From contig NZ_SMGD01000006.1 in the NCBI RefSeq assembly GCF_004339545.1, positions 16,293-56,292 on the forward strand: a stretch of DNA of 40,000 nucleotides. Direction: 5' to 3'. The notes beneath the pieces are model-generated. The model searched no databases and was not told the origin of the DNA. It saw nothing but the letters and a program-made list of their open reading frames with translations. A program made the position numbers and the translations under genes. Position 1 is the stretch's first letter. Each line of letters starts with the position of its first letter. This document shows, piece by piece, positions 2,090 to 32,173 of this stretch. Source of the DNA: Celerinatantimonas diazotrophica. GTDB taxonomy: Bacteria; Pseudomonadota; Gammaproteobacteria; Enterobacterales; Celerinatantimonadaceae.

Positions 2090-2120
2090 AAATCCTCTAT
2101 TCTGGTTAAAGAGCTGCTAA

Positions 2121-3599
2121 TTAGACATATGGACTCTCAAACGTACCGAGCTCGATGTAAACACTCTTGGTTTGAGTATAGTGTTTGAGGGTTTCAATGC
2201 CGTTCTCACGGCCAACGCCTGAATGTTTATAACCACCAACAGGCATTGCTGCGGGGGAATCGCCCCAAGTATTGATCCAGCAAATACCCGCTTCTAACTG
2301 GTGGATGACCCGGTGGGCGCGGCTTAAGTCTTTGCTGAACAGTCCTGCTGCCAGACCGTATTGCGTGGCATTTGCGCGCTCAATAACTTCTTGTTCACTA
2401 TCAAACGGTAAAATGGACATGACAGGGCCAAAAATTTCATCTTTGACGTTAGGCATCTCATCGGTGCAGTCGGCAAAAATAGTCGGCGCAATAAAAAAGC
2501 CATTCGCTAAAACGCCGTGCGTGACGCGCTCGCCGCCCGCAATTAAATTTGCGCCAGAGCGTTTAGCCAGCTCGATATATTCCAGTACTTTAGAAAGTTG
2601 TTTTTCACTGATTAAGGCCCCCACTTGTGTATTCGGATCGAGCGGATCACCAATCGTCAATTTAGCTGTGCGTTCCCGAAGTTGCTCGATAAATTGATTG
2701 TAGATGCCGCGCTGAACGAATACTCGAGTACCGTTGGTACATACTTCTCCTTGGGTGTAGAAGTTAGCCACCATCGCCCCGGAAACAGCGGTGTAAAGGT
2801 CGGCATCATCAAATATAATCAGCGGTGATTTACCGCCTAATTCCATGGTGACTTCCTTAAGTGTCTGAGCGGCGTCAGACATCACTTTTTTACCAGTTCC
2901 GACTTCACCCGTGAATGAAACCTTGGCAATGTCCGGATGGGCAGTGAGCATCTGGCCGACTCGGTAATCCCCCTGCACCACATTGAATACCCCATCAGGA
3001 ACACCGGCTTCGCTGTATATTTCGGCCAGTTTTAACGCACTCAGGGGAGTTTCTTCAGAAGGTTTAAAGATCATTGCATTGCCAGCGGCAAGCGCTGGAG
3101 CTGATTTCCACATCGCAATCTGAATCGGATAGTTCCAGGCGCCAATTCCTGCACAGACGCCAAGGGGTTCGCGACGCGTATAAAAGAAACTGGTATTTGA
3201 TAGCGGTTGTTGCTCGCCCTGCATGGCTGGCACTAAACCCGCGTAATATTCAATGACATCCGCACCTGTAATAATATCCACACAGTTGGCTTCTTGCAGT
3301 GGTTTACCGGTGTCGAGTACTTCGAGTTTAGCCAGTTCATCATTACGCTCACGTAACAGAGCAACGGCTTTTAACAAGATTCTAGAGCGCTCCTGTGGAC
3401 TCATTTGGGACCAGATGGCAAAGCCTTCGAGCGCACTTTTTACCGCTTGATTGACATCGTTCTGGCTGGCTTGGTCGACTTCTGCAAGTAATTCACCTGT
3501 TGCTGGGTTGATGGTTTTAAATGTCTCGTTCGAGGTTGCGCGGTGATAACGGCCAGCGATATAAAGCTGTTGATGTCCCATCGGTGATTGCAGTGACAT
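2121..3599 (-). CDS. betB: betaine aldehyde dehydrogenase
   Basis: The ORF-track start (3722) is an in-frame extension that overlaps betI. The ATG at 3599 gives [16 protein letters not shown]..., 492 aa (E. coli BetB is about 490 aa). ALDH motifs are present: MELGGKSP, the catalytic-Cys context GEVCTNGTR and [11 protein letters not shown]. Confidence 0.93.
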
Positions 3600-3616
3600 G
3601 ATCTTTCCTTTAAAAA

Positions 3617-4213
3617 TTAATGCACTTCGGTAAGTTCGATTTCTCGAGCCAAATAATCGCGAATAAGCTCGATGGCTTTCTCTCTCTGGATCCCTTCTGG
3701 GGCAAGAGCACCTCGTAGCCACAAGCCATCAATGAGTGCGGCAACTCCCCTGGCGACAAATTCTGCACGCTGGGTGCTTAAGACCTTTTTTAGCTCGCCG
3801 CGTAGATGTGAATGTAGCCGCCGTTCATTGACTCGCTGCAGCCGGTACAGGCTATGGTCATGCATCGACTGAGACCAAAATGCCAGCCATGTTTTGACCA
3901 CTTTGCTTTCGGTTTGCTGAGGAGCAAAGTTTCCTTCAACAATCGCTTTGATTCGTTCGATGACTTGGTCGGATGGGATTTGGCGGAGCCGCTCCGTAAT
4001 GCCTGTTCCTAGAGACTTTAAGACTGAGCGCATGGTGGCCTCTAGCAAGCCGTGTTTCCCACCGAAGTAATGGTTGATGATCCCTGCTGAGACGCCAGCT
4101 TTGCGACTAATTAGTGCAACACTCGCGCCGGTTAATCCCACTTCATTGATGACTTCCATCGTGGCATTTATCAGTTGTGGACGGCGGATCTCGGGCATTC
4201 CTACTTTAGGCAT
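3617..4213 (-). CDS. betI: TetR-family choline-responsive repressor BetI
   Basis: The ORF-track start at 4273 is a TTG extension. The ATG at 4213 gives [62 protein letters not shown]. This parallels the E. coli BetI N-terminus (MPKLGMQSIRRRQLIDATL..., from memory). It has a TetR HTH and sits 17 nt upstream of betB. Confidence 0.9.
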
Positions 4214-4220
4214 GTTTTTT

Positions 4221-4240
4221 TTAATTAATCGTTTAATTAA
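4221..4240 (-). promoter_or_regulatory. candidate BetI (TetR-type) operator: TTAATTAA-TCGT-TTAATTAA
   Basis: Perfect dyad of two self-complementary 8-mers around a central CG, 8 nt upstream of the betI ATG. The assignment to BetI is inference from position and TetR-like dyad architecture only. Confidence 0.25.
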
Positions 4241-4403
4241 AAATAGGTTGGCAGAGTTTTGGTTAGATGTCAAAAGGTTGTATCTTTATTAATTTACTGG
4301 AGGTTATGTTTGTGTAGAAAGGTGAATAATTTTCATTGGTTTAATTATTTTGTACGTTTTTTCTGAGGTAAATTTAACTATAGATATAGTGGGCTAATTT
4401 TAA

Positions 4404-6531: not shown

Positions 6532-7653
6532 TCATTGCTTGTTCTGTATCCGTTCTGATGGGTGATCTGCGATACTCTGAGCAATGGTTGCCTGGTCTTC
6601 ATCACTTAAGCTGGCCCTAAATTTAGGTAGGCTTTGTGGATAGTTTTGCTGAATATACTCGATCATTTTTTCGCGAACATAGCAGCGCAGGTCCCAAGCG
6701 GTTGGTGAATTTTTTGCGGTCATGAGCAGGCGGATCGTCATGATTTTATCGGTGCTGTCGGTGACCTGTAAAACTTGCGTTTGCCGGTCCCATAGTTCGG
6801 TTTCATCGAGCACTTTTTCAAAATATTCTCGAAGTGGTGCCAGCGGCATGGAATAATCAAGATATAAAAATACCGAGCCTAAAATTTGCGCACTGTTCCG
6901 CGTCCAGTTTTGAAAAGCATTTTCGGTAAAATAGGTAATGGGTAGCACAAGCCTGCGTAAATCCCAGATGCGCACCACGACATAAGTTAAATTAATCTCT
7001 TCAATCCAGCCCCATTCGTTTTCAACTACAACCGCATCGTCAATCTTAATCGGTTGGGTAAAGGCTATTTGAATACCTGCAAATAGATTAGCTAGCGATT
7101 TCTGCAGTGCAAAACCAATGATGATCCCCGCAACGCCAGCCCCAGTTAAGATGGTGGTACCAAAGCGGCGCACACTGGCAAAATTGAGCAGAATAAATGA
7201 GATCCCCAAAATGACAATAATCACCATCGCAACCTTTTTGATGTAGATGATCTGGGTGCGAATTTTTCGGGCTCGGAGATTGTCAGCCTGGGAGATATCA
7301 TAGCGCAGGAACAAAATATCCTGAACCACATTTGTTAAGCGAATAGCAACGGAGCACAGTGACAAAATAATAAGGATGTTAATCGTGGTGTAAATTGCAC
7401 TCATAATATTGGGGGCAATCGTGACGTAGCTGATGCCTATTTTGATCAAAAGTAGCGGAATAAATAGAAACATCGAACCACGTAGGTGATTTTCGAGGGA
7501 TTTAAACAGCGGCTTATCACGCTTTTGCCAATAACGAATTAACTGGAAAATTAAGAATCTGGCTACCAAGCCAATGACCAGCGATAAGGCAACGACTAAA
7601 AGAGCTGGAACCCAAGGCGTTGCATTGAGTAATTCATTCCATTGCCAAGGCAT
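6532..7653 (-). CDS. MscS-family mechanosensitive ion channel
   Basis: 373 aa. Multi-TM N-terminus followed by the MscS core GVAGIIIGFALQKSLANLFAGIQIAFTQPIKIDDAVVVENEWGWIEEINLTYVVVRIWDLRRLVLP. Confidence 0.88.
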   Translation of the reverse strand: MPWQWNELLNATPWVPALLVVALSLVIGLVARFLIFQLIRYWQKRDKPLFKSLENHLRGSMFLFIPLLLIKIGISYVTIAPNIMSAIYTTINILIILSLCSVAIRLTNVVQDILFLRYDISQADNLRARKIRTQIIYIKKVAMVIIVILGISFILLNFASVRRFGTTILTGAGVAGIIIGFALQKSLANLFAGIQIAFTQPIKIDDAVVVENEWGWIEEINLTYVVVRIWDLRRLVLPITYFTENAFQNWTRNSAQILGSVFLYLDYSMPLAPLREYFEKVLDETELWDRQTQVLQVTDSTDKIMTIRLLMTAKNSPTAWDLRCYVREKMIEYIQQNYPQSLPKFRASLSDEDQATIAQSIADHPSERIQNKQ

Positions 7654-7703
7654 GTGCTCTTCCTCCCATGAGATCCATATGGTTAAGTGTGGCAGAAATT
7701 TAG

Positions 7704-8723
7704 CTAAAACAAAGCGCTGATTAATTGTTTCGCAACTCGGTTGGCACCATAGCCATCTATGAGCCGTTGTGAGTTGTGTCGATAAACGTTAGCTTTTTGC
7801 CCTAGCTCTGCTAAGACGTTGTTGAGCACTAAAGTATTATCAAGTTGGGTAAAATCGAGTAATCGAGCCAGTTGAAAATGGTCGATGACCTGAGCATTGA
7901 AGCTTTGATTATCAACAATCGGCACCGCCAGTGTCGGCAGCCCGACACAGCATCTCTCCCACGTCATGCCACCAGCCGCGCCGATGGCAAAATCGGCCCA
8001 GTCCAGTTGTTGACTAATATTGGGGTCATGGTGAATCAGCTCAACGGCTAAGGAACATGTTTGACATAACGTCTGTAATTGCAGCCAGTCGGGATTCGCT
8101 GCACCAGCAACAATTCGCCAATGGATTGTTCGGGCTTTTTCAACTTTGTTTAAGCCAGTTAGCAGCTTGAGTGTGGCATGAACAGGATCAGCCCCCCCAA
8201 AGCAGATAAAACCGTGTTGTAACACTGCTGGATCTTGATTTTTTTTAACCGCGCGAAATTCTGGACGGATTAACGCATAGCGACCACCTAAGAGTAGCTG
8301 GCAATCGCTATTGAGCCATGGCTGGTAATCACTTTTATGGCGCAGTGGGCCCTGATCGAGTAGCCAGTTTGCTTGGTGTGTGCGGTCTGCTAGATCATCG
8401 AGTACGAGCAGTGGAAACCGGCCGTATAGTTTGCTTTCCCAACGAGCATCTAAGGCATAGTGATCGACAATCACTAAATCGGGTTGAGCGGCTTCTATGG
8501 GGGCAATATCGGCGTGTAGTTTATCGGTATGCAGTGTGCTAAACCCGTGCGCTAAAACCAGTTCATTTAAGGCAGCGGGGAGTGTTTGAGTGTAAAAACA
8601 ACAGGTCACTGCCCGTTGTAATTTCTGTCCTTCGCTGACAAAAGCCTGCGCCAAAGTTAAGGCTCGCATCAGATGGCCTGTTCCAATCGCTGTTGTTGCA
8701 TCCAGACGAAACAGAATCTTCAT
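7704..8723 (-). CDS. pseG: UDP-2,4-diacetamido-2,4,6-trideoxy-beta-L-altropyranose hydrolase (pseudaminic acid pathway)
   Basis: 339 aa. The N-terminus MKILFRLDATTAIGTGHLMRALTLAQAF, then VIVDHYALD, VLDDLADRTH, GGRYALIRPEF, FGGADP, and IGAAGGMTWERCCVGLP follow the PseG (TIGR03590-like) pattern as I know it. Confidence 0.82.
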   Translation of the reverse strand: MKILFRLDATTAIGTGHLMRALTLAQAFVSEGQKLQRAVTCCFYTQTLPAALNELVLAHGFSTLHTDKLHADIAPIEAAQPDLVIVDHYALDARWESKLYGRFPLLVLDDLADRTHQANWLLDQGPLRHKSDYQPWLNSDCQLLLGGRYALIRPEFRAVKKNQDPAVLQHGFICFGGADPVHATLKLLTGLNKVEKARTIHWRIVAGAANPDWLQLQTLCQTCSLAVELIHHDPNISQQLDWADFAIGAAGGMTWERCCVGLPTLAVPIVDNQSFNAQVIDHFQLARLLDFTQLDNTLVLNNVLAELGQKANVYRHNSQRLIDGYGANRVAKQLISALF

Positions 8724-8728
8724 GGGCG

Positions 8729-9424
8729 CTATTTCTCAAAGTGTAATGCGCGAAACAGCAACTCAGCCATCTTCCAATCTTCAGGGGTATCGATATCGAC
8801 GACTTTGTAGCGCGGTAGTATCAATGCTTGGCCACGTCCTTCAAAGACACTTTCGCCAGATAGCCAAGCTTCGCGGATCCCCCAATAAAATTGTCCGGCA
8901 TCTTGATAGGCACTCTCAAGATCTTGGCTGCGTTTGCCGATATGCTCTAGATGGAAAGGCGTTATAAATCCCTGCTGGTCGCGTTTTAAGGCGCGCTGAA
9001 TAGGATATGGATATTCGGCGGCAGAAAACACATAAGCGGCACCACTTTGCTTTAGAAGTGCCAGGGCGCGGGAGAGAGCATCGCTATCAAGTAGGGGGGA
9101 GGTTGCATAAATGCAGCAGTACACCTTATCACTAATCTGACACTCTTTTTCGAGGCGTTGGATAGTATCCAGCATCACTGGGGTGGTGCCGACGTAATCA
9201 TCAGAAAGTGATGCATCTCGCAGAAATGGAACACTAGCGCCATATTGTCTGGCTACTTCAGCTATTTCTGGATCGTCAGTCGAGACCACGATATGCTCAA
9301 AACATTGACTTTGTTTGGCGGCCTCAATGGCATAACTTATCATTGGTTTGCCACAAAATTGTTTTAAGTTTTTACGCGGGATCCGTTTACTGCCACCGCG
9401 CGCAGGAATGATTGCGATCGCCAT
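8729..9424 (-). CDS. pseF: pseudaminic acid cytidylyltransferase (CMP-nonulosonate synthetase family)
   Basis: 231 aa. MAIAIIPARGGSKRIPRKNLKQFCGKPMISYAIEAA is the canonical NeuA/PseF N-terminus. Its stop is 5 nt upstream of the pseG start. Confidence 0.85.
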   Translation of the reverse strand: MAIAIIPARGGSKRIPRKNLKQFCGKPMISYAIEAAKQSQCFEHIVVSTDDPEIAEVARQYGASVPFLRDASLSDDYVGTTPVMLDTIQRLEKECQISDKVYCCIYATSPLLDSDALSRALALLKQSGAAYVFSAAEYPYPIQRALKRDQQGFITPFHLEHIGKRSQDLESAYQDAGQFYWGIREAWLSGESVFEGRGQALILPRYKVVDIDTPEDWKMAELLFRALHFEK

Positions 9425-9538
9425 GCCAATTCCTTGTTAAAAGAGGAAGATGTTCAAGGGTAAGATATTCTTGAGCTCAGTACCAGCGTTGAACAAAAGA
9501 ACCGTGCGAGAGTTGCAATTTAGGAAACGATTTAGAAT

Positions 9539-10087
9539 ATGTTAACCCCCTCTATCACGCGCTATGGCGTGAGTTTAAAACCAGTTTCGCCTGCTGACTT
9601 ACCTGCTTTGCGGCGCTGGCGTAACAGTGACGAAGTGCGTTTGAATATGCTCAGCCAGACGCTCATATCACCTTCCCAGCAACGTCAATGGTATGAGCGA
9701 ATTAGCAATGATGAATCGCAATGTCACTGGTGTGCCTATGTCAACAATGTCCGCACCGGCTATGCTAATTTAAAAGGGTTTGCGCAGGCTCCTCTGAGTG
9801 CTCAGCACACCGCTGACAGTGGTTTGTATCTGGGGCAAAGCTCTGTTCGTCATGGTTTGTTGGCCGCAGCCGTGGCGCTATGTCAGTTGGATGTAGCATT
9901 TGAACAATTTAAGATAGGTCAGATACAGACCCAAGTGAAAAGAGATAATAATAGTGCGATAAAACTAAACCAGATGTTAGGCTATCAACCCCAAACCAAT
10001 GAAAATTATTGGGTTACCTTAACCTTAACCGCGCCATCTTATATCCGCGCGCGGCAGAATTTAATGAGATTTTTTCGTCATGTCTGA
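9539..10087 (+). CDS. GNAT N-acyltransferase, PseH-like
   Basis: 182 aa. L.PV...DLPALRRWRNSDEVRLNM.....ISPSQQRQWYERI plus the C-terminal N..AIKLNQMLGYQ resemble the PseH family (WRN...vr..m motif). It is first in the plus-strand operon, and its stop overlaps the ACP start by 8 nt. Confidence 0.65.
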   Translation: MLTPSITRYGVSLKPVSPADLPALRRWRNSDEVRLNMLSQTLISPSQQRQWYERISNDESQCHWCAYVNNVRTGYANLKGFAQAPLSAQHTADSGLYLGQSSVRHGLLAAAVALCQLDVAFEQFKIGQIQTQVKRDNNSAIKLNQMLGYQPQTNENYWVTLTLTAPSYIRARQNLMRFFRHV

Positions 10088-10319
10088 ATTAATACCTTTA
10101 AATGAAGTTTTTGCGAAAGCTTTGGCTGTCGATGTCAGCCTGATTCATGATTCACTGCAATATCAGTCGATTGTGCAGTGGGATTCTGTGGCGCATATGC
10201 AACTAATTGCGGCCATTGAAGACAGTTACGATGTGATGCTCGATACCGATGACATTATCGAAATGAGCTCGGTTGCTAAAGCTCGGGAAATTCTTGCGAA
10301 CTATGGAGTAACGGTGTAA
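10080..10319 (+). CDS. stand-alone acyl carrier protein
   Basis: 79 aa, acidic. The phosphopantetheine-site context QWDSVAHMQLIAAIE puts the likely attachment Ser at residue 36 (codon 10185-10187). The size and helix pattern are typical of PP-binding carriers found in glycan gene clusters. Confidence 0.8.
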   Translation: MSELIPLNEVFAKALAVDVSLIHDSLQYQSIVQWDSVAHMQLIAAIEDSYDVMLDTDDIIEMSSVAKAREILANYGVTV

Positions 10320-11068
10320 TGAATGCGCTTTTGCAGGGTAAACAGGCGTTTATCACCGGTGCTAGTAGTGGTATTGGCCGGGCGATAGCGGAGTTGTTTG
10401 CTGAGCATCAAGCCACATTATATCTTAATGGCCGAAATCGTGAAGTGCTGGACTCTTTGGCTGAGAAATTGCGCCAGCGTTATGGCGTGTCTGTATTTGT
10501 GCATGCCTTTGATGTAGGGGATGCTCAGGCTGTAAAAGAAGGGTTTCGCAATGTATTTGCTCAGACTAAATCGCTTGATATATTAATTAATAATGCGGGT
10601 GTGCGCATTGATTCGCTGTTGGCGATGGCGTCTAAAAATGCTCTTTCAGAGAGTTTTGCCACAAATAGTTTTGGGCCTTTTTATTGTTGCCAGTATGCAG
10701 CCCGAATGATGCGTCGAGCTGGTGGTGGCAGTATCGTCAATATGTCTTCGGGGATGGCGCTCAACGGCTACGCCGGACAAAGCGTGTATGCTGCGAGCAA
10801 GGCAGCATTAATTGGGATGAGTCGATCATTGGCTAAAGAGTTAGCGGGTGATCAGATTCGCGTGAATGCCATTGCGCCGGGTTTTATTGAGACACCGTTA
10901 GTCGCTGATTTGACTGATTCGCAACGCCTTGAACATATTCAGCAAATTTCTCTTAAACGAGCAGGAAGTGCACAGGAAGTCGCGCAGTGTGCACTATTTT
11001 TAGCCAGTGCCATGGCCAGTTATATTACCGGAGAAGTCATAAAAGTTGATGGAGGAACGCAACTTTGA
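10319..11068 (+). CDS. short-chain dehydrogenase/reductase, FabG-like (3-oxoacyl-ACP reductase type)
   Basis: 249 aa. It has TGASSGIGRAIA (cofactor site), NNAG, and the catalytic S...YAASK. The start overlaps the ACP stop (TAATG). Confidence 0.88.
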   Translation: MNALLQGKQAFITGASSGIGRAIAELFAEHQATLYLNGRNREVLDSLAEKLRQRYGVSVFVHAFDVGDAQAVKEGFRNVFAQTKSLDILINNAGVRIDSLLAMASKNALSESFATNSFGPFYCCQYAARMMRRAGGGSIVNMSSGMALNGYAGQSVYAASKAALIGMSRSLAKELAGDQIRVNAIAPGFIETPLVADLTDSQRLEHIQQISLKRAGSAQEVAQCALFLASAMASYITGEVIKVDGGTQL

Positions 11069-12426
11069 ACTTAGTGGAAAAGATAACGTGTCACCAAGGT
11101 GAAGCCCTTTGGCACGATGGAACATCCTTAAGTTATAAGCAGTTACTCAAACAGGCACAGTTATTGGTTCGCCAATGGGGAAAAGAACGTCAGCTTATTG
11201 TCTTGCGGGCTTACCATCGTCCGGAAACGGTTATTGTTTATCTGGCTGCATTATTGGGTCAACATCCAGTCATTCTTTTTAATCCAAAATTAAATCGCCG
11301 TACTGAACAGGCCATTTTAAAGCTCTATCAACCTAATTGGTGTTATCTGAATGGGCGTTTGCAGGGACAAAAGTTGTCTCAACAATGTCACCAATTTGAT
11401 GATGATTTAGCGGTGATGCTGACAACCTCCGGTTCCACGGGAGGCGCAAAATTGGTGCAGCTCAGCCTTGAAAATATCTCCTCAAATGCAGCTTCTATTG
11501 CACAATATTTGCAAATGACACCTTCGTCTCGAGTTTTAACGGTTCTGCCACTCGCCTATTCATACGGTTTATCGTTATTAAATAGCCATTTGTGGGTGGG
11601 AGGGGCGACAGTCTTAACCGATCCAGATCCTTTAAGAACAGATTTCTGGCAACTGATGCGTGAGCAGCATATTACTCAGCTTGCCGGTGTGCCTTATAGT
11701 TACCAAATTTATGAACAGCTCCGTATCCGTCGCAGTGAGTGGCCAGCCTTAGAAGTACTGACACAGGCTGGCGGTCATATGGATAGTAACCTCGCAGAGC
11801 GCTTTGCTAACTGGGCGAGTTTGCAGGGCAAAGAATTTTTTATCATGTATGGGCAGACAGAGGCGACAGCTAGGATCGCTTATTTGCCAGCGACTCAAGT
11901 ATTGGCGCGTTCGGAGAGCATCGGTGTTGCGATCCCTGGTGGAACGCTCGAGATTCATGATCAACAGAGCCGACCTCTGGGCGATAATAAAGTGGGCGAG
12001 CTCATCTATCGTGGGCCGAATGTCATGCTCGGCTACGCCGAAGAGCTTCGCGATTTGGCGCATCCGGAGCGCCCCGAGTTTCTCAAAACGGGCGATTTGG
12101 GGTATCGTGATTCGCAAGGCTTTTATTATGTCACTGGGCGGCTTAAACGGATTGTGAAGCTGGCTGGTGTGCGTACCGCGCTTGATTCGTTAGAGAGTGC
12201 TTTGGCAGCACAAGGGATCCCTGCAACCTGTTGCGGGGGGGATAATGCACTTCGTATCTCAGTGTTAATTCCAGCGCAAAAGATCAAAGTTGAATCGTAT
12301 CTTCGTGAAGAGCTGCAACTGCATCCATCGTTATTTAAAGTCGCGGTGATTGCTGATTTACCTCACAACATTAACGGGAAACTAGACTATATCGGACTGG
12401 TTTCAATGATTGAAAAGGCCACATAA
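11065..12426 (+). CDS. adenylate-forming (AMP-dependent) ligase, short stand-alone A-domain type
   Basis: 453 aa. Core motifs are TTSGSTGGAKLV, YGQTEAT, GELIYRGPNVMLGY, TGDLGYRDSQGFYYVTGRLKRIVKLAGVR and NGKLDY. The TTG start at 11065 overlaps the SDR stop; GTG at 11074 is an alternative. Confidence 0.85.
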   Translation: MNLVEKITCHQGEALWHDGTSLSYKQLLKQAQLLVRQWGKERQLIVLRAYHRPETVIVYLAALLGQHPVILFNPKLNRRTEQAILKLYQPNWCYLNGRLQGQKLSQQCHQFDDDLAVMLTTSGSTGGAKLVQLSLENISSNAASIAQYLQMTPSSRVLTVLPLAYSYGLSLLNSHLWVGGATVLTDPDPLRTDFWQLMREQHITQLAGVPYSYQIYEQLRIRRSEWPALEVLTQAGGHMDSNLAERFANWASLQGKEFFIMYGQTEATARIAYLPATQVLARSESIGVAIPGGTLEIHDQQSRPLGDNKVGELIYRGPNVMLGYAEELRDLAHPERPEFLKTGDLGYRDSQGFYYVTGRLKRIVKLAGVRTALDSLESALAAQGIPATCCGGDNALRISVLIPAQKIKVESYLREELQLHPSLFKVAVIADLPHNINGKLDYIGLVSMIEKAT

Positions 12427-12436
12427 GAGCATCGAT

Positions 12437-13504
12437 ATGAGTCAGATGGAGAGTTTGTGGGATGCGCCAATTTATGGACTGAACCAATCTGATAAAGCTG
12501 AGCTTCTGCTCTCACGCTTAAATGGATTAAGTCAGTGGCATCGCGAGCATTGCCAAAGTTATGCCACGCTGTTGGAAAGCGCTCATGCTAGCGTGGCTGC
12601 CAATGATTATAGCGAAATTTTGCCACTTGCCGTTCAACTATTCAAACAAGTGCGGTTGTCGAGTATCACCGATGATGAAGTGTTTAAAACGATTACTTCA
12701 TCAGGAACCAGCGGTTCTAAGTCACAGATTATCCTCGATAGAACAACGGCTGCACTGCAGAGCAAGGCGCTGGTGAAAATCATGCAAAGCTGGGTTGGTC
12801 GGGATCGGTTACCCATGCTGTTGATTGAGCAGAGTAATCTGATTGCTCAGCGTAGCGGCTTCTCTGCGCGGGGGGCGGGTGCATTAGGGTTGTCCTTTAT
12901 GGGACGTGAACATTGCTATGCGTTAGATGAACAGATGCAACCCAATTGGCCCGTGATCAAGGCATTCGTTGCCGCGCATCAGAATCAACCGGTACTGATT
13001 TTTGGTTTTACCTTCATGCTCTGGGAATATCTGCTTAAACCGTTGATGCAGCAAGGAGTGTGTTTGGGGCTGGAACAGGCCATTATTTTTCACAGTGGGG
13101 GCTGGAAAAAACTCGAACATCTTTCGGTCAGTTCTGAGCAATTTAACCGTCACTGTGAAGCTTCCATTGGCTCCTCGTGTGTGCATAACTTTTATGGGAT
13201 GGCAGAACAAACCGGGAGCATCTTTGTCAGTTGCGAGCAAGGGCATCTGCATTGCCCTATTTTTTCAGACATTCTCATTCGTGACCCGATGAACTTAGCG
13301 CCCTGTCCAATCGGTAAGCCTGGATTAATTCAGGTCTTCTCTGCTTTGGCTCAAAGCTATCCAGGGCACAGTATTTTGACCGAAGATATGGGACTTTGGT
13401 TAGGCGATGATGATTGCCCATGCGGTCGCAAAGGGCGCTATTTTAAAGTGTTAGGGCGGGAGCCAAAAGCAGAGGTGAGAGGATGCAGCGATACCTTCAG
13501 TTAA
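12437..13504 (+). CDS. LuxE-family acyl-protein synthetase
   Basis: The ORF-track start (12410, TTG) overlaps the ligase. The ATG at 12437 (MSQMESLWDAPIYGL) has AAGAG 7 nt upstream. It shows the LuxE-like pattern (L..L..WHREHCQSYATLL, TSSGTSGSKSQI) and a Cys near the C-terminus (EVRGCSDTFS*). Confidence 0.78.
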   Translation: MSQMESLWDAPIYGLNQSDKAELLLSRLNGLSQWHREHCQSYATLLESAHASVAANDYSEILPLAVQLFKQVRLSSITDDEVFKTITSSGTSGSKSQIILDRTTAALQSKALVKIMQSWVGRDRLPMLLIEQSNLIAQRSGFSARGAGALGLSFMGREHCYALDEQMQPNWPVIKAFVAAHQNQPVLIFGFTFMLWEYLLKPLMQQGVCLGLEQAIIFHSGGWKKLEHLSVSSEQFNRHCEASIGSSCVHNFYGMAEQTGSIFVSCEQGHLHCPIFSDILIRDPMNLAPCPIGKPGLIQVFSALAQSYPGHSILTEDMGLWLGDDDCPCGRKGRYFKVLGREPKAEVRGCSDTFS

Positions 13505-14661
13505 CGGATGATGAGTCTGAACTCATCCAGGTTGAAGTGCCCCAAAAAGCTCAAGTGCAAACGTTAAATCTTGAGCCATTACCCTGTTATGCCCCTGTCC
13601 TGATGGAGTTCTTTACTGCGCTTAGCGATGCTTTAGGTCATTTAAGCGACGCGCCGAATGCCCGGGCGCTAGGTTTTTTTTTGCGAGCCAGAGCGCTAGA
13701 ACAGGCGGTGGCTATTCGCCAACGAGAGTATTTGCGTGCTCCGCGCGGGTTGAGTTTCCATCTGGTGCCTGCGAATGTACCGATGGTGGCATTTCATTCG
13801 GCTTTTGCTTCGTTATTACAGGGTAATCCAACTATTGTGCGTTTATCTTCCCGACAATTACCCGAGCAGCAACAAGTTCTTGAAACGCTCAATCGACTAT
13901 TGAGCCAAGCTCGTTGGCACTGTATTGCGCAACGGATCCGATTTGTTCGCTACCCGCACAGTGATGCATTAACCGCCGCTTTGAGCCGGCAATGCCGGAG
14001 CCGAGTGATCTGGGGAGGCGATGCAACCATTCAGCAGGTCCGAAATTATCCTATAAGCGCTGGTGCGCTGGAAGTCACATTTGCTGATCGCCAGTCATTA
14101 GCTGTCTTTGATGAGCAGAGTCTGCGTCAGATGCCTGGGCATTCTGTGCAGCTGCAATTGCAACAGCTCGCTCAAGACATTAGTCAATTTGCGCAACAAT
14201 CTTGTTCATCACCCGGGGCACTGGTTTGGATTGGTACTGATAGCATATTGCGTCAGAAAACATTTGCCCAACTCTCTGGGTATATAGAGTCATCCATTTG
14301 CCGAGGAAGCACGCAGCTTGCATTGCTCCAAAAAGCTTGTTTAGAGAGGCGAATCAAAGATTATGACTATTTCGGGAACCTTGGCTGGGGACAGCTGAAT
14401 AGCCTTGAACAACTGCCCCCTCGACAAGGTGGTACCGTTTATTGGCAGCAATTTGAGAGTATGGATGCATTTTTTAAGCAATCCATTAATTATCAAACCT
14501 GTGTCATTGTTGGCGGCTCTCGAGAATCCATGAAAGAGCAGTTGGTGAACGCCCCCCAAGTGATGATCGATAGGATCGTTGCCCCAGGTCAAGCGCTTGC
14601 ATTTGATTGGTTATGGGACGGAGTGGATTTGCTCAGTGTGCTCTCCCGAATGATAGTTTAG
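13483..14661 (+). CDS. LuxC-family acyl-CoA/acyl-protein reductase (aldehyde-forming)
   Basis: 392 aa. HLVPANVPMVAFHSAFASLLQGNPTIVRLSS and the catalytic-Cys context QQSCSSPGALVWIG (Cys241) match the LuxC/ALDH-like family pattern. A strong RBS (GAGGTGAGAGG) precedes the ATG, and the gene overlaps the LuxE-like gene by 22 nt. Confidence 0.75.
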   Translation: MQRYLQLTDDESELIQVEVPQKAQVQTLNLEPLPCYAPVLMEFFTALSDALGHLSDAPNARALGFFLRARALEQAVAIRQREYLRAPRGLSFHLVPANVPMVAFHSAFASLLQGNPTIVRLSSRQLPEQQQVLETLNRLLSQARWHCIAQRIRFVRYPHSDALTAALSRQCRSRVIWGGDATIQQVRNYPISAGALEVTFADRQSLAVFDEQSLRQMPGHSVQLQLQQLAQDISQFAQQSCSSPGALVWIGTDSILRQKTFAQLSGYIESSICRGSTQLALLQKACLERRIKDYDYFGNLGWGQLNSLEQLPPRQGGTVYWQQFESMDAFFKQSINYQTCVIVGGSRESMKEQLVNAPQVMIDRIVAPGQALAFDWLWDGVDLLSVLSRMIV

Positions 14662-14700
14662 TCGGGGAGTGGTTTGTTGTAATTATTTTATGAGAACAGT

Positions 14701-14745
14701 AGAGATAAGATTAATAAGTAAGTATTAATCTTATCTCTTTTATTA
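14701..14745 (+). terminator. rho-independent terminator of the GNAT-to-LuxC operon
   Basis: Perfect 16-bp stem AGAGATAAGATTAATA / TATTAATCTTATCTCT with a 6-nt loop (agtaag), followed by TTTATT. It lies 40 nt after the luxC-like stop. The stem is AT-rich. Confidence 0.7.
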
Positions 14746-14807
14746 AATGTTGCAGGAGCAGATAGAGAATTAGCTAATGATTTCGAGTATCAGATGATGG
14801 AGAAAGT

Positions 14808-15422
14808 ATGAATACTGTATTAATGGGTCAAACTCGTGTGACTCCGGGTAAAATCGTCTGTATTGGGCGTAACTATGCTGAACATATCGCTGAACTTAAC
14901 AACGAAGTTCCCGATCAAATGGTTATTTTTAATAAACCAAATTCAGCGATTTCTGAACAACTGCAGAGCTTTCATCAGGAACCACTGCATTATGAATCCG
15001 AGTTAAGTTTTTTGATTCGCGACGGTCAATTCGCTGCGGTTGCCTTTGGCCTCGATCTAACTAAGCGTGGTTTGCAAAATCGTTTAAAAAGTAAGTCGCT
15101 TCCGTGGGAACGGGCAAAAGCTTTTGATGGGGCCGCTGTTTTCAGTCATTTTGTGGCGCTGGATGGCGTTGATATTAATGAGTTAAGTCTCGAGCTTGAG
15201 ATTAACGGGACGCTAGTTCAGCAGGGCCATTGTCGTCAGATGATCCACTTGCCACAGGCGATGCTAGCCGAGATTAGCAGTTACACCACGCTGGATGACA
15301 ACGATATTTTAATGACGGGGACGCCCAAAGGGGTAGGACCAGTCATGAAAGGGGATCGTTTTAAGGGTAAGGTCAAATGCCAAGAGAAAACATTACTGGA
15401 GGCATCTTGGCAGGCTAAATGA
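14808..15422 (+). CDS. fumarylacetoacetate hydrolase (FAH) family protein, YcgM-like
   Basis: 204 aa. GKIVCIGRNYAEHIAE, HYESELSFLI, and DILMTGTPKGVGPV are FAH-fold signatures. A GGAGAAAG RBS is present. Confidence 0.85.
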   Translation: MNTVLMGQTRVTPGKIVCIGRNYAEHIAELNNEVPDQMVIFNKPNSAISEQLQSFHQEPLHYESELSFLIRDGQFAAVAFGLDLTKRGLQNRLKSKSLPWERAKAFDGAAVFSHFVALDGVDINELSLELEINGTLVQQGHCRQMIHLPQAMLAEISSYTTLDDNDILMTGTPKGVGPVMKGDRFKGKVKCQEKTLLEASWQAK

Positions 15423-15550
15423 GTTTGAAGAACTTGCGATTGGACAGGCATTATTTCCGATATCCACTGGGCGACAATGGTTCGAGCAAAGGCAAGATCC
15501 AATTTGCCAATGGAGCTATCGTCAACACTGGCAAATACAGGAACTACACG

Positions 15551-16543
15551 TTAGCGATTTAGGCTTTGCGATATTTGCCAGCTAGTACTTCCTATGTGGT
15601 TAGAGCGTTTGAGTGCCAGTAAGCGTAGTAGTGGTTTAGCATGTTCTTCAAGATTGACGACTTGTTCAGGGAGTAGTTTGTTCATCAATGCCGCACGGTA
15701 TGCCACAACCATGTCGTTGCGTTCAGATTCAACCATCGTAATATAAGCCCAGTAATAAGCATTTTCTAACTGATTTGGATCTTGCTGTTGTATTAATGAA
15801 AGTCGCATCGCTGCAGCAACTTGCCCATTTTGTTCGGCAACCTGTTGGTAGAATTGTTGAGCTTTTTGACTATCTTCTTTGATGCCAATCCCATGTTCAT
15901 AGCAATACGCCAGATTGAGCCGTGAAAACCAGTCTTGGTTGTTCGCTCCGTGAATAAAATAACGAATGGCGGTTTCACAGTCATAGCATGGGCTGTCAGG
16001 GCAGCTATAAATAAAGCCTAGCAAACCATAAGCCGCTGGATCTTCGCGTGTTACCGATAGACTTAATTGTTCGAGAGCTTTGGCAAAATTAGGTTCACTT
16101 TTTTGAGTAAGCCAACAGCGAGCTGCCCAGCAAGCATAAGGGGATGGGATGCTCCGGGCTTTTTTTTCTAGCCAGCGCCTAGTTCGCCATTTGCGCCCTA
16201 AGACCGTAAAGCCAATATCAAAGCTCAATAACCCAAGCAGATATTGACGCCATATCCCTTGCTGATGGTAATGGCTATCAGTTGCTGGCTGGTTGCTCCA
16301 AGCGGCCAGCAGATGATCTTCGTTATGTCTGGCATGCGGATTATCTACCAAATTAGGTCCTTTACTGATTTGTACAAAATCGTGGATCACATAAATAATC
16401 ACTACAAAACATACCAGTGGTACAAACAGTAGGTTGCTGCCAAGAGAGTGCAGTTCACGGATATAATAAAGCTGATACGTCTGCGTAGACGCAATTACAA
16501 TGGCCGAAGCTAGCAGCAAAATGCCGACAATAATGAGTTTCAT
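15551..16543 (-). CDS. membrane-anchored Sel1/TPR-like repeat protein, function unknown
   Basis: 330 aa. Two N-terminal TM helices, then Sel1-like repeats (A.YGLLGFIY..., LNLAYCYEHGIGIKEDSQKAQQFYQQVAEQ). Confidence 0.55.
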   Translation of the reverse strand: MKLIIVGILLLASAIVIASTQTYQLYYIRELHSLGSNLLFVPLVCFVVIIYVIHDFVQISKGPNLVDNPHARHNEDHLLAAWSNQPATDSHYHQQGIWRQYLLGLLSFDIGFTVLGRKWRTRRWLEKKARSIPSPYACWAARCWLTQKSEPNFAKALEQLSLSVTREDPAAYGLLGFIYSCPDSPCYDCETAIRYFIHGANNQDWFSRLNLAYCYEHGIGIKEDSQKAQQFYQQVAEQNGQVAAAMRLSLIQQQDPNQLENAYYWAYITMVESERNDMVVAYRAALMNKLLPEQVVNLEEHAKPLLRLLALKRSNHIGSTSWQISQSLNR

Positions 16544-16668: not shown

Positions 16669-18744
16669 TCAGTAAGATCCATCACTAAAAATGGCATTTT
16701 TATCAATACCTAACCGTTTCATTCTCGAAAGCAGCGTTGTGCGCTTGATACCCAGTTTTTGCGCCGCTCCTCGCGGACCTGCCACAATCCCATTCGTTGC
16801 TTTTAAAGCGCTAATAATCTGGTCGTACTGATGATGCTCTGGTTTAGGGGGCGGAGCGACTTGATGGGAAAATGAGGCGAAGTCCGATTCGCTTTGAATA
16901 TTTAGCTCCGGTGGCAAGCAGAGTTCCCGTCCTGGTGAGAGTAAGACGGCGCGCTCGACGACATTTTCTAATTCGCGAACATTGCCAGGCCACGGATGCT
17001 GTTGGAGCTGGTGGAGCACTTTGGCTGGAATACTGTTGATCTCTCGACCGAGGCGACGAGCCGCTTTAAAGGCAAAAAACTTAACGAGCGTTGGAATGTC
17101 TTCAAGGCGTTCACGAAGAGGAGGTAAACGGACCGGAAAGACATTCAGCCGATAGAATAAATCACTACGGAAACTTTTATCTTCGACCATCTGTTTGAGG
17201 TCTCGATTGGTTGCGGCAATGAGCCGTACATTGACTTGAATCAGTTTACTTCCGCCGAGTCTTTCAAACTCTTGCTCTTGGAGTACTCGTAACAGTTTCG
17301 GTTGTAGTTCAAGTGGCATATCGCCTATTTCATCTAAAAACAAACTGCTTTGATGTGCTAACTCAAAACGCCCGGCGCGGCTGGTACTGGCACCAGTAAA
17401 TGCGCCTTTTTCATGACCAAAGAGATCGCTCTCTAACAAGCCTGCTGGCATCGCTGCACAGTTCATTTTGATCATGCGTTTTTCATTGCGTGGACTTAGT
17501 TGATGGATTGCTTTGGCAAATAGCTCTTTACCGGTGCCGGTTTCTCCCAGTAGTAATACACTACAATCAGTTTTGGCGACAAGCTCTATTTGCTTCATCA
17601 CATTGCTGATAGCCGAGCTGCGGCCAATAATCTGATCAAATTGATGATCAATCTGGTCGATTTGTTCACTTAAATAGTGGTTCTCATGTACTAACTGCTC
17701 TTTAAGCGATTTAATTTGTTGATACGCAAGGGCATTATCGATAGCGATGCCGACTCGTTCCGCAATTTGCTCCAGTAGTGCTAGTCGGTTCTGACTAAAG
17801 CTATCGGTATTTGGCTCGCCGTGCGCCACTTTTAAAACGCCACACACCTTACCAGCATAAATAATGGGTAATAACCCTAATTGATGAGACAGTGCTGGCC
17901 ATAGCTCGAATAATTTTTGTTCGGATAGGGCCATGTCCTCATCGTTGTTGAGCGAGTGCAGGGAGCGTTTGGCATGTTCAAAAACTTGGCGACTCGGACT
18001 TTTTTTGCTCAGTGACCGGTGCTCACATAGTGATATTTCTTGGTCATTAAAAAAGAAGGTACTGTAGCTGATATTATGTTTGGGCTTGTTATCAGGCAAA
18101 GTAATGGTGATGGCATCGAGCGCAAAATAGCGGTGGATTTCCCGAGCTATTTGTAAAATGACCTTATCTAGCTCTCGCTGAGCAAGCACTGAGTTGGTCA
18201 CATTGACTAAAACGTGAAAGTCATCACGCTGTCGACACAACTGGCGTTCTTGATAGCGCAGTTCAACGTGTGATTGTAGATGGGCCAGAGCAATTGATAG
18301 TGAGTGGGTGAGTACTTGGGCGTCTTTAAATGGCTTCTCACTCAAGATTTCACATAAATTATAACGCCCCTTATTATCGACCAACGGGAGCGCGGTATAG
18401 TAGTTAAATTCAGGGTAGTTGACTTGGCGAAATAATGCCGGATAACGTTTAACGAATTCGTCGTAGCTCAACTCAAGCGGTTGTCGAGTGGTCTGAATTT
18501 GATGAAGCGGGCCATTTTCAAATAACTCTGACTGTTCCAAGCTGCGGTATTGAGGGTCATAAATGTGCCAACTCAATTGCTCAGCAGTAGAAACGAGTAA
18601 GGTCGGTTGGCCGTGCGCTGGGTGTGTGGCTAGCTTTTGCTGCAAGCATCCCAGGAAATCCTCAATCGTAAATTGCTCAAGGAGCTGATGAGTCAAATCC
18701 AGCCAAAATGTCGATTGTGTATGATCGTTGGTCGTTATGAACAT
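16669..18744 (-). CDS. fhlA: sigma54-dependent formate hydrogenlyase transcriptional activator
   Basis: The ATG at 18744 (the track start 18780 is a TTG extension) gives 691 aa; E. coli FhlA is about 692 aa. It has a long GAF-containing N-terminus and an AAA+ core with GETGTGKELFAKAIH, the sigma54-contact motif GAFTGA and an ESDLFGHEKG loop. The C-terminal HTH is AAQKLGIKRTTLLSRMKRLGI. Confidence 0.9.
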   Translation of the reverse strand: MFITTNDHTQSTFWLDLTHQLLEQFTIEDFLGCLQQKLATHPAHGQPTLLVSTAEQLSWHIYDPQYRSLEQSELFENGPLHQIQTTRQPLELSYDEFVKRYPALFRQVNYPEFNYYTALPLVDNKGRYNLCEILSEKPFKDAQVLTHSLSIALAHLQSHVELRYQERQLCRQRDDFHVLVNVTNSVLAQRELDKVILQIAREIHRYFALDAITITLPDNKPKHNISYSTFFFNDQEISLCEHRSLSKKSPSRQVFEHAKRSLHSLNNDEDMALSEQKLFELWPALSHQLGLLPIIYAGKVCGVLKVAHGEPNTDSFSQNRLALLEQIAERVGIAIDNALAYQQIKSLKEQLVHENHYLSEQIDQIDHQFDQIIGRSSAISNVMKQIELVAKTDCSVLLLGETGTGKELFAKAIHQLSPRNEKRMIKMNCAAMPAGLLESDLFGHEKGAFTGASTSRAGRFELAHQSSLFLDEIGDMPLELQPKLLRVLQEQEFERLGGSKLIQVNVRLIAATNRDLKQMVEDKSFRSDLFYRLNVFPVRLPPLRERLEDIPTLVKFFAFKAARRLGREINSIPAKVLHQLQQHPWPGNVRELENVVERAVLLSPGRELCLPPELNIQSESDFASFSHQVAPPPKPEHHQYDQIISALKATNGIVAGPRGAAQKLGIKRTTLLSRMKRLGIDKNAIFSDGSY

Positions 18745-18950
18745 GACTCTCTCGCTGAAACATGAATGAGCATTGGACAAGTGCCTTAACTAACCGATGA
18801 CACGCAATATTTAAGGCAATGGATTCGATAACAGATGATCAGATGATATTGAGTCGCCTACTTCATCACCGCGAAATCAGCTGCATCTACAAAGCCATAT
18901 TGTTTGTCAGGTATTATAATGATTTGAGTTGTTCAATAACCTAAACTCGA

Positions 18951-19967
18951 TCAACAAATACGTGGAAGAGGTTCAAAATAGGGCAGCTCTAAAGAGCGAG
19001 TTACACCATAAGCACCTTTGAGGCGAACCCCTGGTTTTTCCTGCACTTGGCCAATAACGGTGGCGTTGGCTCCCAGAGGGTGGTTGTGCAGCTGTGTTAA
19101 AACCTGCGTGGTCGCGCTATTTTTACAGATAATAATTAATTTGCCTTCATTGGCAAGGTTCAATGGCTCAAGCCCCAGTAGCTCACACATTCCCCGAACG
19201 GCGTCACTAACGGGCAAGAGTACTTCGCTGACTTCAAAACCTAAACCACTGGTTTTCGCAAATTCATGCAAAATAGCATTCACGCCGCCGCGGGTTGCAT
19301 CTCTTAAGGTATGAACGCCAGCTATGTGCACGAGCGGTTCAACCAATGGCCAGAGGACCGCACAGTCACTTTGCAGGGCATCGCCTAGGCCTAAATTTTC
19401 GCGCTGATTTAAAATCGCGCCACCATGGTCGCCTAGTGTGCCAGTGACAATGATGTCATCTCCTGCGGTAATTTGTTCCATGCCCCAGTGCGTTCGTGGG
19501 TCGATGAAGCCAATCCCGGTGGTGTTGATAAATAGTTTATCGGCATTGCCGCGGCCAACTACTTTCGTATCGCCAGTGACAATTTGAATATTGGCTTGTC
19601 GAGCCGTATGCGCCATGCTTTGAATAATTTTTTCTAAACGCGCAATAGCCAGCCCTTCTTCCAAAATGAGGCTGCAGGTCAGATACTGAGGGCGTGCTCC
19701 GCCGACGGCCAAATCATTCGCGGTCCCACAAATAGCTAATTTACCGATATCACCGCCGGGAAATTCCAGGGGATCAATCACAAAACTGTCAGTGGTCATG
19801 GCTAAAGTGCCTGATTCGCTATTCATTGATGAGAGTGCGATTCGAGCCTGGTCTTCGCCACGGCGTAAATAGGGATTATCAAATTGCTTAACGAGCAGAT
19901 TTTCAATTAATTGACCCATTGCCTGACCACCACTGCCGTGCGCCAGGGTAATTACATCGTTGGACAT
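18951..19967 (-). CDS. hypE: hydrogenase maturation protein HypE (carbamoyl dehydratase)
   Basis: 338 aa. The N-terminus is ITLAHGSGGQAM. It has a PurM-like fold and the diagnostic C-terminal ...PRIC. Confidence 0.93.
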   Translation of the reverse strand: MSNDVITLAHGSGGQAMGQLIENLLVKQFDNPYLRRGEDQARIALSSMNSESGTLAMTTDSFVIDPLEFPGGDIGKLAICGTANDLAVGGARPQYLTCSLILEEGLAIARLEKIIQSMAHTARQANIQIVTGDTKVVGRGNADKLFINTTGIGFIDPRTHWGMEQITAGDDIIVTGTLGDHGGAILNQRENLGLGDALQSDCAVLWPLVEPLVHIAGVHTLRDATRGGVNAILHEFAKTSGLGFEVSEVLLPVSDAVRGMCELLGLEPLNLANEGKLIIICKNSATTQVLTQLHNHPLGANATVIGQVQEKPGVRLKGAYGVTRSLELPYFEPLPRIC

Positions 19968-21082: not shown

Positions 21083-21365
21083 GGCTGCCCCCGCCATTAT
21101 TTAAAAAGGCACCGACATCACTTTCCAGCTCACTCATTGCCTCAAGCGTTGCAAGCGTTTCTTTTGCTTGTTGCTCATCCAATACGCTCATGGCAAAACC
21201 AACATGCACCAATACCCATTGACCGAGCCGAGATTGACCACTTTCATCGGTGGCACCAATGAGTGAGAGATCGACTTCGCGTCGAGCACCACCTACGGCA
21301 ATGATGCCGATATCTGGCTGGGTATTATCGAGTGCGATGAGCTGTGCCGGTGTCCCTATGCACAT
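21069..21365 (-). CDS. hypC: hydrogenase maturation chaperone HypC
   Basis: The ATG at 21365 gives the diagnostic N-terminus MCIGTPAQLI (essential Cys2). It is 98 aa. The ORF-track start (21392) is an extension into hypB. Confidence 0.9.
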   Translation of the reverse strand: MCIGTPAQLIALDNTQPDIGIIAVGGARREVDLSLIGATDESGQSRLGQWVLVHVGFAMSVLDEQQAKETLATLEAMSELESDVGAFLNNGGGSHALD

Positions 21366-25778: not shown

Positions 25779-25789
25779 GGAGAAACACT

Positions 25790-26734: not shown

Positions 26735-26752
26735 GCTAAGGAGTTGTTTTTC

Positions 26753-28195: not shown

Positions 28196-28204
28196 GAAAG
28201 GATT

Positions 28205-28852: not shown

Positions 28853-28858
28853 TTAAGG

Positions 28859-32153: not shown

Positions 32154-32173
32154 AGGGTCGGAGAGCGTAAATC

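Follow-up and report, generated by a model that had tools for sequence, protein, structure and literature searches.

A PseH-linked acyl-carrier cassette beside pseF-pseG in Celerinatantimonas diazotrophica, a candidate source of a hydroxylated N-acyl group for pseudaminic acid

The 40,000-nt stretch of Celerinatantimonas diazotrophica DNA analysed here (the window; NCBI RefSeq assembly GCF_004339545.1, contig NZ_SMGD01000006.1, positions 16,293 to 56,292) carries at positions 7704-14745 two pseudaminic acid (Pse) biosynthesis genes, pseG and pseF, and, divergently from them, a cassette of six genes encoding a PseH-like GNAT, an acyl carrier protein (ACP), a short-chain dehydrogenase/reductase (SDR), an AMP-forming ligase, and LuxE-like and LuxC-like proteins (Table 1). 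The list of open reading frames (ORFs) contains all eight, with coordinates that match exactly an earlier gene map made from the letters alone (the original prediction), and both the six-gene cassette and pseFG are real and intact.

The six plus-strand genes are chained from 9539 to 14661, as originally described, by overlaps of 8 nt (GNAT/ACP), 1 nt (TAATG, ACP/SDR), 4 nt (TTGA, SDR/ligase, also kept in the locus L087 of Ca. C. neptuna) and 22 nt (LuxE/LuxC). Two starts are available for luxE, ATG 12437 with a 10-nt gap and 355 aa or TTG 12410 with a 17-nt overlap and 364 aa, and the former is favoured because the homologues have 351-357 aa. The 16-bp hairpin noted earlier after luxC was recovered as a stem at 14701-14738 (-18.3 kcal/mol, z = -4.8 against shuffles), which is AT-rich, with 3 GC pairs among 16. 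The 114-bp divergent region shared with pseF-pseG was found where it had been placed; it holds one weak sigma-70-like site pointing toward pseF, and inspection by eye detected no convincing sigma-54 or sigma-28 motif in it. Rfam gave zero matches within window positions 7000-16000, and the GC content of the cassette region equals that of the rest of the window.

Table 1. Features of the pse-linked cassette locus and of the downstream formate hydrogenlyase region, in window coordinates.
Feature	Position	Strand	Support
pseG, UDP-2,4-diacetamido-2,4,6-trideoxy-beta-L-altropyranose hydrolase	7704-8723	-	TIGR03590 251.4 bits (cut-off 153.6)
pseF, pseudaminic acid cytidylyltransferase	8729-9424	-	TIGR03584 324.9 bits (cut-off 205.7)
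divergent intergenic region pseF/GNAT, 114 bp	9425-9538	.	sequence
PseH-like GNAT, candidate UDP-4-amino sugar N-acyltransferase	9539-10087	+	PF13302; TIGR03585 62.1 bits (cut-off 93.1)
dedicated ACP, WDSxxHM subfamily	10080-10319	+	PF00550 19.3 bits (cut-off 20.8)
FabG-like SDR	10319-11068	+	PF13561 212.7 bits (cut-off 27); TIGR01830 233 bits (equivalog cut-off 298)
stand-alone AMP-forming ligase, probable ACP loader, TTG start	11065-12426	+	PF00501 140 bits (cut-off 29.9)
LuxE-like acyl-protein synthetase, alternative TTG start 12410	12437-13504	+	PF04443 171 bits (cut-off 24.9)
LuxC-like thioester reductase, short form, 392 aa	13483-14661	+	PF05893 89 bits (cut-off 21)
intrinsic-terminator-like hairpin and T tract	14701-14745	+	16-bp stem, 6-nt loop, TTTTATT
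fhlA	16669-18780	-	
hypE, hypD, hypB	18951-22276	-	
hydrogenase-4 hyf subunits	23137-34377	+	
hydN			formate hydrogenlyase region
fdhF	35119-37281		formate hydrogenlyase region
hypF	37288-39570		formate hydrogenlyase region

In profile searches the original family assignments stood for the ligase, LuxE, LuxC and the SDR (PF00501, PF04443, PF05893 and PF13561, all above cut-off), while the PseH model TIGR03585 and PF00550 stayed below theirs; the SDR is also under the equivalog threshold of TIGR01830. The ACP misses PF00550 only slightly, matches the NCBIfam ACP models at E = 2e-5, and carries W34-D35-S36 and H39; across 68 cassette ACPs these residues are retained at 99-100%, and W34 and S36 never vary. 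The SDR motifs TGxxxGxG, NNAG and YxxxK (Ser/Tyr/Lys) and the adenylation motifs of the ligase (TSGSTGGAK, YGQTE, TGD, GRxKRxxK and NGK) are readable in the translations. The ligase reaches the cut-off of no NCBIfam equivalog; its closest PDB sequences are the stand-alone adenylation enzyme 3WVN, malonyl-CoA synthetase, oxalate-CoA ligases and beta-aminoacyl-ACP synthetases, and such small-di-acid and ACP-loading relatives may give a weak clue to its substrate.

Cys241 of LuxC, in QQSCSS, is invariant (22/22 homologues) and aligns with the Cys of QQACFS in Photobacterium LuxC (PDB 7XC6). The TSSGTSG ATP loop and the C-terminal RGCS of LuxE align with the LuxE motifs of the same structure (KGCS there), and RGCS is invariant in 61/61 homologues. 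Since both cysteines align with 7XC6 and stay invariant in the family, the acyl relay from LuxE to LuxC is probably retained. Thus the earlier statement that all catalytic motifs are intact is borne out by alignments for the ACP, LuxC and LuxE, and by the translations for the SDR and the ligase.

With the bioluminescence proteins the window pair shares the LuxC Cys, the LuxE ATP loop and the C-terminal acyl-Cys, but it is remote from the bioluminescence equivalogs (LuxE 58 bits against a cut-off of 550, LuxC 39 bits against 750), and its LuxC has 392 aa, compared with 477 aa in bioluminescence LuxC. Neither luxD nor luxA or luxB was detected among the window ORFs, and, unlike the bioluminescence pair, LuxC and LuxE are here accompanied by an ACP, an additional adenylating enzyme and sugar genes. 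The window LuxC is 100% identical to a C. diazotrophica protein annotated as 'acyl-CoA reductase'.

The GNAT is classed here as PseH-like, yet it scores below the family threshold. TIGR03585 (PseH) is its best NCBIfam match, though the equivalog threshold is missed; the cassette-adjacent GNATs of other loci score 30-132 bits on this model, several of them above the cut-off. Single-sequence phmmer against the PDB missed PseH, which was found only by family profile and fold search: a profile of cassette-linked GNATs returned Campylobacter jejuni PseH (4XPK/4XPL) first (100 bits, 4XPK) and FdhC (5KTA) second (95 bits), and an AlphaFold2 model, built from an alignment of database homologues (predicted local distance difference test score 92.4), gave Helicobacter pylori PseH (4RI1) as the top Foldseek match in the PDB (template modelling score 0.78-0.81), a predicted likeness that exceeds those to RimJ and SpeG by little. 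The W-R-N motif is retained. Identity is 14-15% to the solved PseH structures and 46-51% to the Aeromonas counterparts. The genomic context is that of a Pse enzyme, since this GNAT family neighbours pseG, pseF or pseI in at least 20 related loci. The earlier naming of this protein as PseH-like was upheld by the best NCBIfam, profile and fold matches, and not by the PseH cut-off.

PseH uses acetyl-CoA, whereas the window GNAT may take acyl-ACP. FdhC, a 3-hydroxybutanoyl-CoA-dependent N-acyltransferase acting on a dTDP-amino sugar, is the second-best profile match and thus an example of a related enzyme with a donor other than acetyl. An attempt to deduce donor specificity from the P-loop region was dropped because the sequences align too poorly there. 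The idea of a GNAT clade specific to the cassette was rejected in view of the spread of PseH scores and by a homologue in a pse locus that has no cassette (L088). In the Firmicute loci L064 and L076 the GNAT beside the cassette SDR/ACP scores 115 and 92 bits on PseH, and the GNAT beside pseI 60 and 53 bits.

The same eight genes, in the same order and with the same divergent pseG-pseF / GNAT...LuxC layout, are present in the Aeromonas Group II flagellin glycosylation islands (L001, L002, L008, L010, L013). We detected an identical divergent layout in Aeromonas schubertii (L001), Tolumonas (L002), C. yamalensis (L004 and L007), Ca. C. neptuna (L087) and a fliS/fliT-linked locus (L006), and we read the eight genes as the C. 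diazotrophica version of the core that Aeromonas-type (Group II) islands conserve, published as pseFGH + orf1-3 + luxE + luxC. The window LuxC shares 39-43% identity with its Aeromonas counterparts. In 98 Aeromonas strains pseFGHI adjoin genes that encode an ACP, a 3-oxoacyl-ACP reductase and an AMP-synthetase, together with luxE and luxC, and the glycosyltransferase gene fgi-1 comes next (PMC7874193); the same gene set was reported in more than 70 enterobacterial strains, in the flagellin glycosylation islands of Enterobacteriaceae (PMC4875605). Both papers interpret the set as fatty acid synthesis or 'liposugar' genes. The original prediction had pointed to luxC/luxE-like genes in Aeromonas flagellin glycosylation islands, correctly so for the Group II islands (PMC7874193), and had overlooked that the cassette is very widespread and already in the literature as a gene cluster, one whose function is biochemically unsolved.

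The window differs from the Aeromonas islands in its surroundings. A gene for an fgi-1-type GT2 stands right after luxC in Group II, whereas the window has the terminator and then a FAA-hydrolase gene; Group II is flanked by pseBC, pseI and maf-2, whereas the ORFs of the 40-kb window include none of these and no other glycosyltransferase. The window locus lies between mscS and the FAA-hydrolase/fhlA-hyp-hyf region, while Aeromonas-type islands are found in a flagellar context, and the 40-kb window contains no flagellin gene. Related loci with the cassette in divergent layout have Maf, pseB/C/I and glycosyltransferases close by. A search with Tolumonas PseI gave a result in which the best 120 matches listed were dominated by Aeromonas entries. 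The fgi-1-type GT2 of C. yamalensis is 54% identical to the Tolumonas protein and has no homologue in the window, and because this GT2 is missing the C. diazotrophica locus is a reduced version of the island. Four or more Celerinatantimonas lineages retain the cassette itself, with identities of 56-86%.

Two further genes or gene groups distinguish the relatives. In C. yamalensis (L004 11429-14203) luxC is followed by a GtrA/GtrB/GtrII-type trio (flippase-like, GT2 and Glucos_trans_II), the GT2 of which is related to the GT2 adjoining WecD-like GNATs outside pse loci. A CN-hydrolase (nitrilase/amidase superfamily) gene lies between mscS or a transporter gene and pseG in L004 (3386-4180) and L087 (7390-8172), and the counterpart of this site in C. 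diazotrophica is merely 50 bp long (7654-7703).

The LuxC-like gene was detected in at least 593 genomes (a scan with one genome per species), and a profile search returned 1,549 clusters at 50% identity (E <= 1e-30). The best 80 loci were surveyed and scored with home-built profiles. The five-gene core is spread over many phyla, with all five genes present in 49/80 loci. Among the 45 loci of at least 18 kb, 21 have NeuB- or CMP-transferase-like genes, 14 have only a 4,6-dehydratase or DegT aminotransferase gene and 9 have none of these, amino-sugar genes being present in about 78% of these long loci. The originally expected co-occurrence with the nonulosonic acid pathway held about half the time, the other loci carrying other amino-sugar genes or none; the cassette is best read as a general amino-sugar accessory.

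The PseH-like GNAT is the pse gene nearest to the cassette and adjoins it directly in 16 of the 24 pse loci, in three placements: upstream of the ACP, downstream of LuxC, or beside the SDR. In Campylobacterota (L036, L049, L056) the cassette is inserted in the pse operon between pseG and the GNAT gene. In non-pse loci its neighbours are a GT2 and a protein of about 242 aa that lacks annotation; the profile of this protein matches WecD (TDP-fucosamine N-acetyltransferase, 2FS5) over the full length. Further loci have PglD-like or AAC(3)-like transferases in its stead. An N-acyltransferase is found within 5 kb in 28/45 long loci. Because the transferase family varies with the sugar pathway while the cassette stays constant, the cassette probably supplies the N-acyl group, and this transferase swapping is the strongest comparative argument for such a supply.

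Transketolase or thiamine pyrophosphate (TPP) enzymes are encoded in 21/80 loci; they require an aldehyde acceptor and therefore would fit an aldehyde made by LuxC. Extended cassettes (L019, L039, L089, L028, L062 and others) are known from Pelagibacteraceae, Lachnospiraceae and further groups; their additional enzymes are a split transketolase, a TPP enzyme, a FabA-like dehydratase and radical-SAM proteins (SPASM or B12-binding), which suggests longer, tailored acyl chains. Of the related loci, 4 have ketoacyl-ACP synthase III genes and 13 have FabA-like genes.

Mass data from Aeromonas bear on the size of the acyl group. Cassette-bearing Aeromonas strains have pseudaminic acid derivatives of 376.14 Da or 422 Da, never the 316-Da Pse5Ac7Ac; the 376-Da sugar reportedly goes back to Wilhelms 2012 (JBC). 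The extra mass persists when every gene lying between pseC and luxC is deleted and also without the fgi-1 homologue AHA_4171, and in the fgi-1 and AHA_4171 mutants the derivative is still present as a single monosaccharide. The computed mass of Pse5Ac7Ac is 316.127 Da, and replacement of one acetyl by a C4H6O3 acyl gives 376.148 Da, with an oxonium ion of 377.156 compared with the observed 377.16. We infer that the 376.14-Da derivative is Pse5Ac7Ac with one acetyl swapped for a C4H6O3 acyl, for which dihydroxybutyryl fits. A literature search for papers joining 'dihydroxybut*' with 'pseudaminic' found none. The heptasaccharide of A. piscicola AH-3 ends in an 'unknown 102 Da moiety', and a C4H6O3 acyl group has a mass of 102.03 Da.

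The reading that we favour, with confidence slightly above even, is that the PseH-linked cassette most likely produces a small, hydroxylated acyl, which takes the place of an acetyl on pseudaminic acid. The ACP, the AMP-ligase, LuxE, LuxC and the SDR would together convert a small di-acid, malate being the most economical candidate, into a hydroxy-acyl thioester on the dedicated ACP. The presence of two adenylating enzymes with a thioester reductase implies that two carboxyl groups would be activated. One adenylating enzyme would place one carboxyl on the ACP; LuxE would activate the other and pass it via its C-terminal Cys to the LuxC Cys, LuxC would reduce it to an aldehyde, and the SDR would reduce a carbonyl, giving a group such as 2,4-dihydroxybutyryl. 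ACP loading and reduction may come in either order. The PseH-like GNAT would then transfer this acyl, and not acetyl, to the 4-amino group of UDP-4-amino-4,6-dideoxy-beta-L-AltNAc, the nitrogen of which becomes N7 of pseudaminic acid, and PseG, a PseI encoded elsewhere and PseF would in turn complete and CMP-activate the sugar. Here the cassette substrate and product, the donor of the GNAT and the target glycoconjugate are what we infer. For the mechanism set out in the original prediction, the support is circumstantial: the cassette adjoins pathway-matched N-acyltransferases and 376.14 Da fits the C4H6O3 swap, while the lack of a cassette-specific GNAT clade counts on the other side.

The V. 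cholerae O1 rfb region, named earlier as an analogous set, does correspond according to literature descriptions of rfbK-O. The genes rfbK-L-M-N-O (wbeK-O, VC0248-VC0252), likened here to the cassette by their described functions, are required for the O1 antigen; with RfbK as carrier, RfbL as ligase, the LuxC/LuxE fusion WbeN and the alcohol dehydrogenase WbeM, they lead to 2,4-dihydroxybutanoyl-perosamine. Both systems comprise a dedicated carrier, an AMP-ligase, LuxC/LuxE activities, an alcohol-forming reductase and an N-acyltransferase near 4-amino-sugar genes, and in V. cholerae, as proposed for the window, the acyl is attached to a 4-amino-4,6-dideoxy sugar at its 4-amino group. In V. cholerae one protein of 825 aa, WbeN, combines LuxC and LuxE, which the window encodes as two proteins; the reductases are of different kinds, an iron alcohol dehydrogenase in V. 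cholerae and an SDR in the window; the acyltransferase families also differ; and the acceptor is GDP-perosamine, as opposed to a UDP-linked pseudaminic acid precursor for the window.

Several observations weigh against the hydroxy-acyl reading. A GNAT 44% identical to that of the window is present in the cassette-free pse locus L088, so the GNAT clade is not cassette-specific, and two Firmicute loci have two adjacent PseH-like GNATs each (L064 5155-6225, L076 2027-3067). CoA thioesters are the usual GNAT donors, and no sequence feature points to ACP use. The difference of +60.02 Da is also solved by O-methyl-glyceroyl or by two hydroxypropionyl groups; the 422-Da form requires a C5H8O5 acyl, for which the cassette alone does not account; and the masses were obtained in Aeromonas, whose proteins share only about 40-50% identity with those of the window. 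The genes pseB, pseC, pseI, maf and fgi-1 are not among the ORFs of the 40-kb window, and there is no published biochemistry for any cassette member. A rival explanation is an ordinary acetyl-CoA-dependent PseH that makes Pse5Ac7Ac, with the cassette product attached elsewhere or later (to another sugar, at O-positions or to lipopolysaccharide). PseH is the best family match, several cassette-adjacent GNATs pass its cut-off, the same clade occurs without the cassette in L088, and the terminal 102-Da moiety of the A. piscicola AH-3 glycan equals the C4H6O3 acyl mass. We nevertheless consider this explanation unlikely, as the +60.02 Da on pseudaminic acid corresponds to substitution of an acetyl and not to simple acyl addition, the derivative stays a lone monosaccharide in the fgi-1 and AHA_4171 mutants, the Campylobacterota cassette sits within the pse operon at the pseG/GNAT junction, and the window encodes no acyltransferase besides the GNAT.

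Decay of a larger glycosylation island, leaving a remnant in C. diazotrophica that no longer makes a glycan, would explain why pseB, pseC, pseI, maf and the fgi-1-type GT2 are missing from the window, and C. yamalensis and Ca. C. neptuna do retain glycosyltransferases and the CN-hydrolase gene at the same site. Eight full-length ORFs with intact catalytic residues and tight translational coupling, and the retention of the cassette across the Celerinatantimonas lineages, make this quite improbable, and pse genes are often split between loci, as are pseBC and pseFGHI in Aeromonas. The literature reading, in which a fatty acid or fatty aldehyde is made or channelled and the glycan becomes a 'liposugar', follows from the LuxC/LuxE names and the FabG- and ACP-like domains and was suggested by the authors of the island studies (PMC7874193, PMC4875605). 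It has very little probability in our view: no ketosynthase, dehydratase or enoyl reductase gene is present in the window, LuxE and LuxC are far below the bioluminescence cut-offs, the masses of 376 and 422 Da do not match hexanoyl (372.19), octanoyl (400.22) or myristoyl (484.31) forms, and the nearest PDB relatives of the ligase use small di-acids or load ACPs with amino acids. We give as little credence to the release of an ACP-bound acyl by LuxC as an aldehyde or alcohol for a non-glycan product. LuxC-type enzymes can directly reduce acyl thioesters, TabE being an acyl-ACP reductase (bioRxiv 10.1101/2025.08.11.669332), but LuxE retains its C-terminal acylation Cys, favouring the relay to LuxC, and the long loci carry the amino-sugar and N-acyltransferase genes at the frequencies given above (about 78% and 28/45).

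The hydroxy-acyl reading can be extended to a widespread, multi-phylum pathway in which a small di-acid is converted into an omega-aldehyde or omega-hydroxy acyl thioester that then N-acylates 4-amino-4,6-dideoxy sugar nucleotides at the 4-amino group; among the acceptors would be the precursor of pseudaminic acid, dTDP-sugars (through WecD-like GNATs) and, in V. cholerae, GDP-perosamine. We put this forward tentatively, as falling somewhat short of an even chance. If true, the 376-Da sugar of Aeromonas flagellin would be Pse5Ac7(dihydroxybutyryl), and the transketolase, TPP, FabA and radical-SAM additions would extend the LuxC aldehyde into longer polyhydroxy-acyl groups.

The varied N-acyl groups of nonulosonic acids on flagellin, lipopolysaccharide and capsules affect antigenicity, phage recognition and motility, and to our knowledge the enzymes for most of the non-acetyl groups have not been identified. 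The label 'fatty acid synthesis' was given to the cassette in the literature without any test. If the cassette makes a short hydroxy-acyl N-substituent, a gene set that at least several hundred species carry would gain a function, the 376-Da Aeromonas sugar would be explained, and a mechanistic tie to the tetronate pathway of V. cholerae O1 would be established. The result for the window itself is modest: a nitrogen-fixing marine Celerinatantimonas adds a further intact copy, and the seagrass symbiont Ca. C. neptuna has the same locus.

The window additionally contains a betI-betB-betA operon (392-4273, minus strand) for conversion of choline to glycine betaine, the genes of which are found next to the locus in both C. 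yamalensis and Ca. C. neptuna too, as well as mscS and a LemA-family gene with a neighbouring gene for a 254-aa protein that has no family match. Downstream of the terminator lies the FAA-hydrolase-family gene (14808-15422, plus strand; PF01557), with NF007967/PRK10691 as the best NCBIfam match, below cut-off; it is probably unrelated to the cassette, because its adjacency is not conserved in other loci. The next gene (15551-16543, minus strand) encodes a 330-aa Sel1-repeat protein with N-terminal hydrophobic segments, which matches the flagellar T-ring protein MotX weakly (E = 7e-6, 25.6 bits, far under the cut-off). It is followed by a complete region of the formate hydrogenlyase-2 type (16669-39570), in which the AT skew is strongly negative over the hyf membrane subunits.

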